From positions 3,282 to 67,281 of the forward strand of contig CAKOLW010000003.1 in the NCBI GenBank assembly GCA_934096405.1: DNA of 64,000 nucleotides, written 5' to 3'. Numbering within the stretch: position 1 is the first letter of the stretch; each line of letters begins with the position of its first letter. Position numbers and translations under genes: made by a program. The notes beneath the pieces were generated by a model. The model was not told the origin of the DNA and ran no database searches. It saw only the letters and a program-made list of their open reading frames with translations. This document shows positions 18,684 to 20,408 of the stretch, piece by piece. The stretch is from an uncultured Bacilli bacterium. GTDB taxonomy: Bacteria; Bacillota_I; Bacilli_A; RF39; UBA660.

Positions 18684-20408
18684 ATGAGTAAAGAAAAGAA
18701 ATATATATTATTTGGTTTAGCATTAGTTTTAATTACTTTGTTGGGTATAACACTAGCATATTTTGTATCTAATGTTGAAGGAGGAAAAAGAACAGTTACA
18801 GTAAGTACTGGAGATTTAAGAGTAATATTTAATAATGGAGATAAAATTGAAGGAGTAGATATAGAACCTGGTTGGGAATTAACTAAAACATTTAGTATAG
18901 AAAATAAAACTAAAAGTGTATATAAATATAATTTAGTTATTCAAGATTTAGTAAATACATTTGCATCTGATAATTTAGTATATAAAATAACAAGTACTAA
19001 TGGTGGTTATAACATGACAGACTTTGAAGTACTACCAAAATCAGATACAGCAACAGATACAATATTAGCATATAGTTCTTCAATTAATGGAAAAGCAACA
19101 CAAGAATATACTATATCAGTTAAATTTAAAGAAGAAGATAGAAATCAAAAAGAAGATATGGGCAAAGTAGTAACAGGTAAGATTTATATAACTAAAGGAA
19201 CAGAAGGACCAATTTTGTTGAGTGAAGCAATATTAAGAGATAATCCCACAATAAGTGAAAGAACTTCATTTAGTAGTCCATTTAATGATACAACAACGGG
19301 AACATTGTTTACATCAACAGAAAGTATAACGGGAATAACAGATGTACCACAAGAAATTTACTATTATGCAGGGAATACAACTAATAACTGGGTAAAGTTT
19401 GGTAAAGAAACAATCAATGGGTGTATATATAATGAACGTAAAGTAAATTATATGTATGACACTGGATTCAAAATAGTTGAAACAAGTGATGAGTGTTCTT
19501 CAACCAATGTTTGTGTAGTATCTGATGACCTAATTCCATATGTTGGATTTACTGAGGAAACATGTAATTTAAACGGAGGCACATGGACTACAGAAAAGGC
19601 AACATATGTGACTGAAATGGTAAAAGATATATATTGGAGAATAATGAGAACAAATCATGATGGAAGTATAAGATTGCTATATGCAGGAACTAATCCCAGC
19701 ACAATTAATGCTTATATTAAAACAAGCAAAATTAATTCTTTAAATAATAGTCCAAAATATGCTAGTTATAAATATGGAGAGGATGATAGCACGTTAGATG
19801 AAATAAGGACTAATACAACTGATAGTACAATAAAAATGACATTAGATACATGGTATCAAAGCAACTTAACAAATTATACAAAATACTTAAGTACAAGTGC
19901 GGTATATTGTAATGATAGAAGCTTGGGAACAGGACAAACATATAGTTCGACAACAAGTTTTAGTTTTGCACCATATAAAAGATTATATACAGATAAAACA
20001 CCAACATATAATTGTAGTGATATAAGAGATTCATTCAGTGTAGAAAATACAAGTGCACAACTTACTTACCCAATAGCCTTAATGACAGCAGACGAAATAG
20101 CTTATGCGGGTGGAGTAATTGGACAAGACATGAATAAACCTTATGCTTGGTTTGCAGGTAATAGTAATGGCAGATCAATAACCGCTGGTGAGCTTATTGG
20201 ATGGTGGCTAATGTCACCTGCTGAATGGGATAGTAAAGTTGTAAGGACATGGTATTCAGATGCTGTTTATCCTAGTTTGAATACTCAACATACAGATACT
20301 AATTCTGCTGTTCGTCCAGTCATTTCTCTAAACTCTTGTGTCAAAGCAACAGGAACAGGAACTACTGATGATCCATATGTAGTGGATGAAAATAGTTCTA
20401 CATGTTAG
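18684..20408 (+). CDS. Paralog P3: TasA/SipW-type signal plus N-terminal domain plus conserved core (subtype A) with a Cys-rich insert
   Basis: The signal ...LLGITLAYFVSNVEGG resembles the SipW-dependent TasA/CalY signal (..GGGTxAxF). The core has TGTLFTSTESITGITDVPQEIYYYAGNTTNNWVKFG, YWRIMRTNHDGSIRLLY, AVYCNDRS, YPIALMTADE, WWLMSP, VRPVISLNSC and DPYVVDENSSTC. Confidence 0.85.
   Translation: MSKEKKYILFGLALVLITLLGITLAYFVSNVEGGKRTVTVSTGDLRVIFNNGDKIEGVDIEPGWELTKTFSIENKTKSVYKYNLVIQDLVNTFASDNLVYKITSTNGGYNMTDFEVLPKSDTATDTILAYSSSINGKATQEYTISVKFKEEDRNQKEDMGKVVTGKIYITKGTEGPILLSEAILRDNPTISERTSFSSPFNDTTTGTLFTSTESITGITDVPQEIYYYAGNTTNNWVKFGKETINGCIYNERKVNYMYDTGFKIVETSDECSSTNVCVVSDDLIPYVGFTEETCNLNGGTWTTEKATYVTEMVKDIYWRIMRTNHDGSIRLLYAGTNPSTINAYIKTSKINSLNNSPKYASYKYGEDDSTLDEIRTNTTDSTIKMTLDTWYQSNLTNYTKYLSTSAVYCNDRSLGTGQTYSSTTSFSFAPYKRLYTDKTPTYNCSDIRDSFSVENTSAQLTYPIALMTADEIAYAGGVIGQDMNKPYAWFAGNSNGRSITAGELIGWWLMSPAEWDSKVVRTWYSDAVYPSLNTQHTDTNSAVRPVISLNSCVKATGTGTTDDPYVVDENSSTC

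Follow-up and report, generated by a model that had tools for sequence, protein, structure and literature searches.

The 64-kb stretch analysed here (64,000 nucleotides of contig CAKOLW010000003.1, hereafter the window) raises the question of how one kind of protein head came to be joined to several different N-terminal modules within a single genome, and of what one of these modules, which recalls the matrix protein TasA, is doing there. Proteins of the TasA family are known as matrix fibre subunits that consist of one domain. The window has a G+C content of 26% and carries eight paralogues, P1 to P8, all on the + strand and dispersed among housekeeping genes (nusA-infB, uvrC, polC, cysS, aspS, eno, ileS, dnaG-rpoD and topA). 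An initial sequence-only reading had proposed that four of them, P3, P4, P5 and P8, begin with a SipW-type signal and an N-terminal domain like those of TasA and camelysin (CalY), and that export modules have been swapped on a constant core. We centre our analysis on P3 (18684..20408, + strand), a complete gene encoding 574 amino acids. Its source is an uncultured low-GC gut Bacilli bacterium, kin of 'Clostridium sp. CAG:628'. Human-gut metagenome contigs from Hadza and other cohorts hold exact copies of P3, the closest public genomes are metagenome-assembled genomes (MAGs) labelled uncultured 'Bacilli', 'Clostridium sp. CAG:628' and 'Tenericutes/Mycoplasma sp.', and the best match to P3 among GTDB representatives is 50% identical.

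We consider it probable that P3, P4, P5 and P8 are modular extracellular proteins, each built from a SipW-cognate signal, a TasA-type carrier, a joint and a DUF6273-like head; that carriers have been re-assorted among the heads is well supported. In P3 the predicted signal peptide (18684..18758, amino acids 1-25) consists of MSKEKK followed by YILFGLALVLITLLGITLA, with predicted cleavage at TLA|YF. It is followed by a TasA/BsaA-family beta-sandwich module (18759..19211, amino acids ~26-176), whose low-confidence N-terminal strand is a candidate donor strand, by the conserved joint in the KGTEGPILLSEAILRDNPTISERT region (19212..19268) and by an extended DUF6273-like head (19230..20405 in the core alignment), which contains a Cys-rich insert at amino acids ~233-307 (nucleotides ~19380-19604). 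The other TasA-type genes, likewise on the + strand, are P4 (30691..32211, N-module 30691-31245), P5 (37642..39435, with a divergent N-module at 37642-38241) and P8 (58909..60570, N-module 58909-59451). The remaining four paralogues place the common core on other N-termini. P1 (1544..2998) and P2 (3009..4418) have a prepilin (type IV pilin) N-module, and both pass the prepilin cut-offs (PF07963, 29.6 and 30.6 bits vs 21.2; TIGR02532, 27.1 and 28.6 bits vs 16.3), so that with their prepilin motif and an extra non-pilin module, the shared core, they can be classed as modular type IV pilins. Scans with the same two models found no prepilin motif in P3, P4, P5 or P8. In P6 (44812..47049) and its tandem partner P7 (47064..49253) the core lies behind a transmembrane (TM) segment and an N-region of ~300 amino acids.

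The motif strings quoted in the sequence-only reading are exact: LLGITLAYFVSN in P3, IGTTLAYFKF in P4, GSTTYAYFKT in P5 and IGVTLAYFIT in P8. The (T)(L/Y)A-YF signal and the following beta domain of ~150 amino acids proved to be restricted to these four proteins when all open reading frames (ORFs) of the window were scanned for a basic N-terminus and a hydrophobic stretch followed by [STGAV]x[AGS][YFW][FYW] (in narrower form [ST]xA[YFW][FYW]); the scan additionally returned two internal starts in enolase, which are false positives. A hidden Markov model (HMM) was built exclusively from 28 stand-alone homologues of other organisms, window sequences being excluded. Because this independent model matches P8 (2.4e-55), P3 (3.1e-54, amino acids 1-174), P4 (4.2e-48) and P5 (3.9e-15) over residues ~1-175 and matches none of P1, P2, P6 and P7, the N-module is real and specific to the four, with similarity far above chance. 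The N-module of P5 is 23-30% identical to those of P3, P4 and P8. Across 139 representatives the signal motif has Ala at position −1 in 89% and [YFW][FYW] in at least 97%. The cleavage site of P3 is predicted to be T-L-A|Y-F because in the hhalign comparison the SYA-YF of the family aligns on the TWA-AF of TasA.

The proposed resemblance to TasA/CalY-type proteins was borne out by profile searches, by way of homologues. A search with the N-module profile returned 3297 cluster representatives (1500 at 1e-10 or better), many of them stand-alone proteins of 170-185 amino acids. Within the set of 28 stand-alone homologues, each with an E-value no worse than 1e-24 to the N-module profile, 21 match PF12389 (best E 5.5e-10), nine match the BsaA model TIGR04090 (best 2.7e-8, the best NCBIfam match) and six match the TasA model NF046066; one of the 28, P0125, has a precomputed PF12389 annotation. 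In PDB the N-module profile places the TasA chains 5of1 and 8aur on top (E 0.036-0.041), and hhalign pairs the stand-alone alignment with Bacillus subtilis TasA at 84% probability (E 7.7e-6, 65 columns). The TasA sequence used for hhalign agrees with the PDB profile match over the 48 residues displayed there. The aligned pairs are in register: the hydrophobic core, G-x-S-Y-A-Y-F on G-G-T-W-A-A-F and nI-PGW-tKTFsVEN on NLKPGDKLTKDFQFEN. The link from N-module to TasA is solid because these stand-alone intermediates match TasA and BsaA models, and the N-module thus appears homologous to TasA, CalY and BsaA at the level of the superfamily, while lying outside family membership by curated thresholds. 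The AlphaFold2 model of the P3 N-module is a nine-strand beta-sandwich with a predicted local distance difference test score (pLDDT) of 78 overall, mostly 80-90, and the full-length P4 model has a pLDDT of 89.7. In both models the segment directly after the predicted cleavage site falls below 50 (amino acids 31-43 in P3), as would be expected of a donor strand that lacks structure in the monomer (PMC11580942, PMC9674648). In Foldseek the P4 model finds the TasA fibre 8aur_A at rank 9 (E 3e-3, probability 0.99, TM-score 0.32 on the target). The term 'export module' used in the sequence-only reading suits the signal; the N-part as a whole is a TasA-family structural domain, however, and 'carrier' or 'polymerisation module' describes it better.

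Short matches of 180-300 amino acids that appear to be 'N-module only' were considered as stand-alone subunits and set aside, being mostly truncated or frameshifted copies of full-length genes. At one of the related loci, L107 (4001-5753), a 1-nt insertion falls exactly at the joint and breaks a family gene into a 182-amino-acid N-module ORF (cluster P0004, with 41 member sequences) and an overlapping core ORF of 405 amino acids. The split could reflect a sequencing error or a pseudogene, or it could be a genuine route to head-less subunits.

The head, ~320-390 amino acids long and common to all eight paralogues, belongs to a large, unnamed family of 3669 clusters at 1e-5 or better. The C-terminus of P3 (amino acids 484-550) aligns with the last third of the DUF6273 model PF19789 (E 1e-3, 19.5 bits vs 23.5), so that the P3 core does not reach the gathering score; a homologue, P0040, passes it with 27.8 bits. 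The core profile has no significant match among PDB sequences. The top Foldseek match of the P4 model is the immunoglobulin A (IgA) peptidase of Thomasclavelia ramosa, 9qa6 (E 1.7e-5, 331 columns), whose N-terminal domain (residues 31-322) is annotated as DUF6273; catalysis does not require this domain (PMC12402451). In the phage proteins that diversity-generating retroelements target, DUF6273 domains have been described as C-type-lectin-like (PMC10743442). The head is probably an extended DUF6273-like, lectin-like ligand-binding domain. Its variable loops differ between paralogues. A diversity-generating retroelement was considered as the source of this variation and rejected: apart from the alignments among paralogues, self-BLAST of the window gave nothing resembling a template/variable repeat pair, and no reverse transcriptase was seen among the window ORFs. 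Head diversity comes from paralogy and recombination rather than from a retroelement. As for the company the head keeps, the best 120 core matches comprise 107 TasA-type, three prepilin-type and three TM-anchored proteins, the rest being N-terminally truncated fragments. Conversely, 67 of 79 long proteins with a TasA-like module carry this core, and one carries BspA-type leucine-rich repeats in its place.

We propose that a SipW-type (archaeal/endoplasmic reticulum (ER)-type) signal peptidase would cut P3, P4, P5 and P8 after the Ala of TLA and free a flexible N-terminal strand, which would act as the donor in the way described for TasA (PMC9674648) and BsaA (PMC11580942). By donor-strand exchange the TasA-like module would then polymerise, or dock onto a TasA-like fibre, and the carrier would thereby display the head outside the cell. 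In P1 and P2 the same head would be shown on a type IV filament, and in P6 and P7 it would be held on the membrane. Since efficient Bsa secretion in Clostridium perfringens needs several type IV pilus-associated genes (PMC11580942), the coexistence of TasA-type and pilin carriers may, by analogy, be functional and not evolutionary alone.

Candidates for the peptidase were found in the relatives. Loci related to the window were gathered with the P3 protein as query, and tblastn of these with an approximate SipW probe gave candidates that were then checked with NCBIfam. The check identified them as archaeal/ER-type signal peptidases I (TIGR02228, 102 and 90 bits vs 51.85), with SipW as the second-best model. 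The SGSMEP-type peptidase motif is absent from the window and from 1.1 Mb of related loci; the peptidases of the relatives have S(P/Q)SM(T/V)P instead. TIGR02228 peptidases occur in CAG:628, CAKONK01 and MGYG-HGUT-04242, the gene order typA-queH-sipW is conserved across the lineage, and in CAG:628 a family paralogue follows immediately downstream of the peptidase gene. One metagenome sample, ERZ27287193, holds both a sipW contig (k141_503968, 93.8 kb) and the P3 contig k141_557321, and the two sequences are at a similar distance from CAG:628, the sipW contig at 81.6% DNA identity and the window at 78.9% in polC. Directly downstream of sipW in two related loci (L082, 6863-7348; L087, 6713-7940) we observed small genes whose products have a hydrophobic start ending in AYAY or a SYAIF-like motif, N-termini such as would be expected of SipW substrates. 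These small genes match neither Pfam nor the N-module HMM.

Several results weigh against the proposal that TasA-type carriers assemble and present the head. First, no window protein directly reaches a curated TasA-family cut-off. P8 comes closest, with 16.1 bits (E 0.01, amino acids 12-78) to PF12389 (Peptidase_M73; gathering cut-off 22.5) and 13.2 bits (E 0.075) to the SipW-cognate signal model TIGR04088 (cut-off 19); direct Pfam and NCBIfam scans of P3, P4 and P5 gave no match to either model. The BsaA model TIGR04090 finds no window protein even with E-values up to 1, and the isopeptide triad of BsaA (N-E-K) was not identified; conserved positions of the module are K68, N74, N91, Q155 and D158. 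Second, the similarity to TasA is limited in hhalign to the first ~65 residues. Third, Foldseek on the isolated N-module returned generic beta-sandwiches with TM-scores of 0.3-0.4, and TasA is absent from its top 50 matches. That model retained the signal helix, and its matches (beta-sandwich, carbohydrate-binding-module and toxin domains) were not used as evidence for TasA. On the structural side the support is moderate: it consists of the beta-sandwich and the TasA match of the full P4 model at rank 9. Fourth, motif search and tblastn found no sipW-like ORF in the 64 kb, and neither the window-end genes nor DNA identity with L097 gave a physical link between the sipW contig and the window. 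Fifth, the small sipW-adjacent genes, lacking a Pfam match, are not claimed as TasA-like shaft subunits, and no stand-alone shaft gene was verified in the lineage. Finally, as regards the head, the Foldseek output came without coordinates, and the 9qa6 match is placed on the DUF6273 domain by inference.

Some of these points would also suit another arrangement, in which the proteins are secreted monomeric adhesins, released or loosely attached, with a TasA-like segment that is a signal plus an inert Ig-like stalk or spacer, and with no fibre. This is the strongest of the alternatives, though we think it unlikely. It agrees with a TasA alignment confined to the beginning of the module, with the likeness of the isolated module to generic beta-sandwiches and carbohydrate-binding modules and with the lack of an identified shaft subunit among the sipW-adjacent genes. 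It also gains from the BsaA paralogue BsaB of C. perfringens, which forms no long oligomers (PMC11580942), so that membership of the family is no guarantee of polymerisation. A mere spacer would, however, be less well suited than a self-sufficient subunit to being kept as an independent protein of ~170-185 amino acids in many genomes. The strand behind the cleavage site is predicted to be disordered, like that of subunits that undergo donor-strand exchange, and the parallel carriers of the same head include pilins, which are polymerising modules. These points favour the assembling carrier.

It is far less probable that the hydrophobic segment is an uncleaved signal anchor, which would make P3, P4, P5 and P8 type II membrane proteins functionally like P6 and P7. 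The window without sipW and the AlphaFold2 rendering of the segment as a single long helix (amino acids 2-31) would fit such an anchor, but the T-x-A|[YF]F motif is conserved and in register with the cleavage sites of TasA-type proteins, and close relatives keep SipW-type peptidases, in one case beside a family gene.

How, then, did different carriers come to bear the same head? The junction block described in the sequence-only reading, (I/L)L(R/K/E)(D/Q)N(P/K)T(I/V)SERT, is indeed constant: it lies at amino acid 183 in P3, 186 in P4, 201 in P5 and 182 in P8. Its equivalent is found at amino acid 153 in P1, 150 in P2 and 322 in both P6 and P7, and the three carriers (prepilin, TasA-type and TM) are therefore fused at one conserved joint, as that reading had held. 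In the P4 model the corresponding segment is a helix (amino acids 182-189) that opens the head. On the two sides of this joint the paralogues have different relatives. The N-modules of P3 and P8 are 70.7% identical and their cores 44.9%, with 82% DNA identity between P8 58970-59486 and P3 18748-19264; the core of P3 is closest to that of the prepilin-type P2 (60.1% identity). In sliding windows the amino-acid identity of P3 and P8 is 70-87% up to amino acid ~195 and drops at ~196, past the joint, to 24%, while that of P3 and P2 is ~20-30% until amino acid ~160, climbs to 55-96% from amino acid ~164-203 and is 90-96% at amino acids 203-232. The identity profiles mark the joint as a recombination breakpoint zone as well. 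Trees of the N-modules and of the cores are incongruent, as had been predicted: the grouping (P3,P8)|(P4,P5) obtains 99.8% quartet bootstrap for the N-module and 2.6% for the core, where (P3,P5)|(P4,P8) obtains 91.9%, and in the eight-taxon core tree P2 and P3 form a clade with 100% bootstrap.

The tandem pair P6 and P7 displays the same boundary at the DNA level. Between P6 44802-45793 and P7 47054-48045 the identity is 97.3% over 992 nt; the N-terminal ~0.75 kb is identical, with 100% DNA identity over amino acids 31-240, and identity decays across the joint to ~50%, the cores being ~43% identical. This pattern indicates that gene conversion or duplication took place very recently, was restricted to the N-module and ended at the joint. 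The uncoupling also holds on a wider sample. On a tree of 101 cores, which were drawn from many metagenomes and comprise 91 TasA-type, five prepilin-type and five TM-type proteins, N-terminal type requires nine changes of a possible ten (bootstrap range 7-10); shuffled labels average 9.9, and the observed placement is indistinguishable from random. These results show that homologous recombination, acting at the joint and also elsewhere within the core, has combined carriers and heads anew time and again, and that carrier type is therefore uncoupled from the phylogeny of the head, in line with the earlier claim that the one does not track the other. The proposed division of cores into subtypes A and B fared less well. 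The grouping of P2 with P3 is sound, but a clean split is not obtained: P4 groups weakly (64%) with P2 and P3, and the inserts are distributed as a mosaic. The insert ...ESTQA..DKFS.S...GGNGQ is present in P1, P5, P6, P7 and P8 and absent from P2, P3 and P4, and the Cys-rich insert that follows NNWVKFG varies in length, with a long form in P3, P5 and P6 and a shorter one in P7, P8 and P4, while P1 and P2 lack it. The core itself is thus a mosaic, and the subtypes are approximate only. That unequal evolutionary rates or the alignment could have produced the appearance of swapping in the absence of recombination is scarcely credible: the quartet and eight-taxon trees are neighbour-joining trees on short alignments (169-300 columns), but the steps at the joint are sharp (100% to ~50% in P6/P7 nucleotides, 87% to 24% in P3-P8 amino acids), unrelated folds (pilin, TasA-like and TM) sit on cores 60% identical, the P2+P3 clade is fully supported and N-terminal type is placed almost at random on the 101-core tree.

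Two of the TasA-type genes, P4 and P8, share a structured 5' leader of ~200 nt that is absent upstream of P3 and P5. The leader of P4 (30494..30690, + strand) combines a leader ORF with a G8 tract (30589-30596) and a pair of terminator-like hairpins, and that of P8 (58715..58908, + strand) has the same organisation with a G7 tract (58804-58810). The leader ORF, of ~20 codons, runs through the poly-G tract, after which there are stops in two frames (TAACTAAC), and both hairpins lie upstream of the ribosome-binding site of the gene. The folding z-score is −4.8, the leader has no match in Rfam, and in the alignment, read by eye, the second hairpin stays paired although its stem occurs in no fewer than four different sequences. 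G tracts of seven or more number 26 in 1.2 Mb of related loci and window, and 21 of these lie ~60-140 nt upstream of genes with the TasA-like module or core of the family. Tract lengths of 5, 7, 8, 9 and 10 were found; in G8 copies the leader ORF ends before the first T-run, and in one G9 and one G5 copy it extends 48 nt more, through that T-run. Look-ups of the exact sequences of P4, P8 and P0175 for a comparison of poly-G between strains returned no record. The leader may be a phase-variable or regulated attenuator dedicated to the family. Leader sites in relatives are L006 9851, L007 3072, L012 9818, L013 9883, 11933 and 18635, L016 3191, 7679 and 9894, L017 7644, 9883 and 16564, L018 9830, L038 1522, L053 9774 and L107 3886.

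The same core and poly-G leader also accompany an additional N-terminal type in relatives (L007 from 3131, L013 from 11991, L016 from 3249 and from 7737, L017 from 7702, and L067). It reads MKFIKTKTGIFY...LSLSYAS or ...GLSYGTF, is unmatched by the TasA-like HMM and may represent either a fourth carrier or a SipW-type module that has diverged. A more speculative and rather doubtful extension of the assembling-carrier proposal is that in these uncultured gut Bacilli with small genomes surface variation is combinatorial in three layers: lectin-like heads are shuffled by recombination among three carriers (TasA-like donor-strand fibres, type IV pili and TM anchors), TasA-type copies join in heteropolymeric fibres that bear different heads, and individual copies are switched by the poly-G leader, where slippage would move the stop of the leader ORF relative to an intrinsic terminator.

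Set beside known systems, the module shares with TasA/CalY (PF12389) a predicted signal ending in T-x-A|[AY]F, a following strand and a PG..TK.F..EN block that align in register with TasA, a predicted beta-sandwich fold and homologues that are Pfam members. Unlike TasA (~230 amino acids) it has ~150 amino acids and lacks the long helical insertions, it bears a C-terminal head of 320-390 amino acids, and its genes are dispersed among housekeeping genes rather than placed in a sipW-tapA-tasA operon. BsaA of C. perfringens (TIGR04090) forms SipW-dependent matrix fibres by donor-strand exchange, with isopeptide locks and type IV pilus-associated secretion (PMC11580942, PMC7395162). That system too belongs to a low-GC anaerobe with TasA-like proteins and type IV pilins in the same organism, but the BsaA subunit has one domain only, its gene is part of a sipW operon, and no passenger domain has been described on it. 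The modular type IV pilins of Streptococcus sanguinis, PilB with a vWA module and PilC with a lectin module, place a bulky adhesive module on a pilin carrier (PMC8179133). The general plan of a small polymerising carrier, a short linker and a bulky functional head is the same here, and P1 and P2 qualify as such pilins, whereas P3, P4, P5 and P8 have in place of a pilin a TasA-like carrier that would work by donor strand. With DUF6273 (PF19789) proteins the core shares its C-terminal part, which matches the model, and its best structural match, 9qa6; it differs in being about twice as long as the Pfam model, and its N-terminal half (ILRDNP...NNWVKFG...YWRIIRTN) is specific to the lineage. In the literature searched we found no description of TasA-like fibre subunits with a functional head, nor of one head that is passed within a genome from pilin to TasA-like and TM carriers or back.

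Several observations concern the surroundings of the paralogues. The nearest genome, CAKOLN01, has 98% DNA identity to the window in nusA-infB-uvrC only and ~80% elsewhere, and we take it to be a related species. Synteny with its contig CAKOLN010000006.1 (L015), compared for window positions 4992-13903 and 43680-54828, is broken at paralogue positions: in CAKOLN01 the order is holA, family gene, queA...dnaG-rpoD, and in the window polC-P3-rsmE...ileS intervenes. Metagenome contigs tend to stop at paralogues, and k141_557321 (34.6 kb) begins ~3.6 kb before the window and ends near P4. The paralogues may serve as rearrangement points. Just past topA, at 62762-63543, lies a small ORF with a prepilin-like N-terminus (KNGWGIVEAL), and a contig of the same type that extends beyond the window end (L106, 3430-13392) encodes two Flg_new repeat proteins and an N_methyl protein of more than 515 amino acids; these genes suggest that more paralogues or components of type IV filaments lie close by. 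Directly before the leader of P8, a family-less, very Cys-rich ORF of 157 amino acids (MNNNLGSCGCRNSNNDDCQNNC...) occupies 58167-58640 (+ strand). Upstream of aspS there is a T-box leader (26266-26444, + strand; Rfam RF00230, 98.4 bits), and a stretch of 60 nt that lies upstream of ileS (39500-39559) is 87% identical to it and probably belongs to a second T-box.

Taken together, a TasA/BsaA-type carrier bearing a DUF6273-like head, and exchanged with pilin and TM carriers at a conserved joint, is a common and unannotated architecture in uncultured gut Bacilli, in which the TasA-like module serves as an interchangeable carrier for a large head. A putative function is thereby offered for part of the DUF6273 family, and the set of genes is a natural experiment for mapping the minimal TasA-type assembly module. 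If the carrier polymerises, Gram-positive gut bacteria would have a new way to display variable adhesins, and the TasA/BsaA and type IV pilus systems would be linked in evolution by serving the same cargo. Should the three-layer system also be true, it would be a Gram-positive counterpart, on TasA chemistry, of the variable adhesins of mycoplasma and Neisseria.

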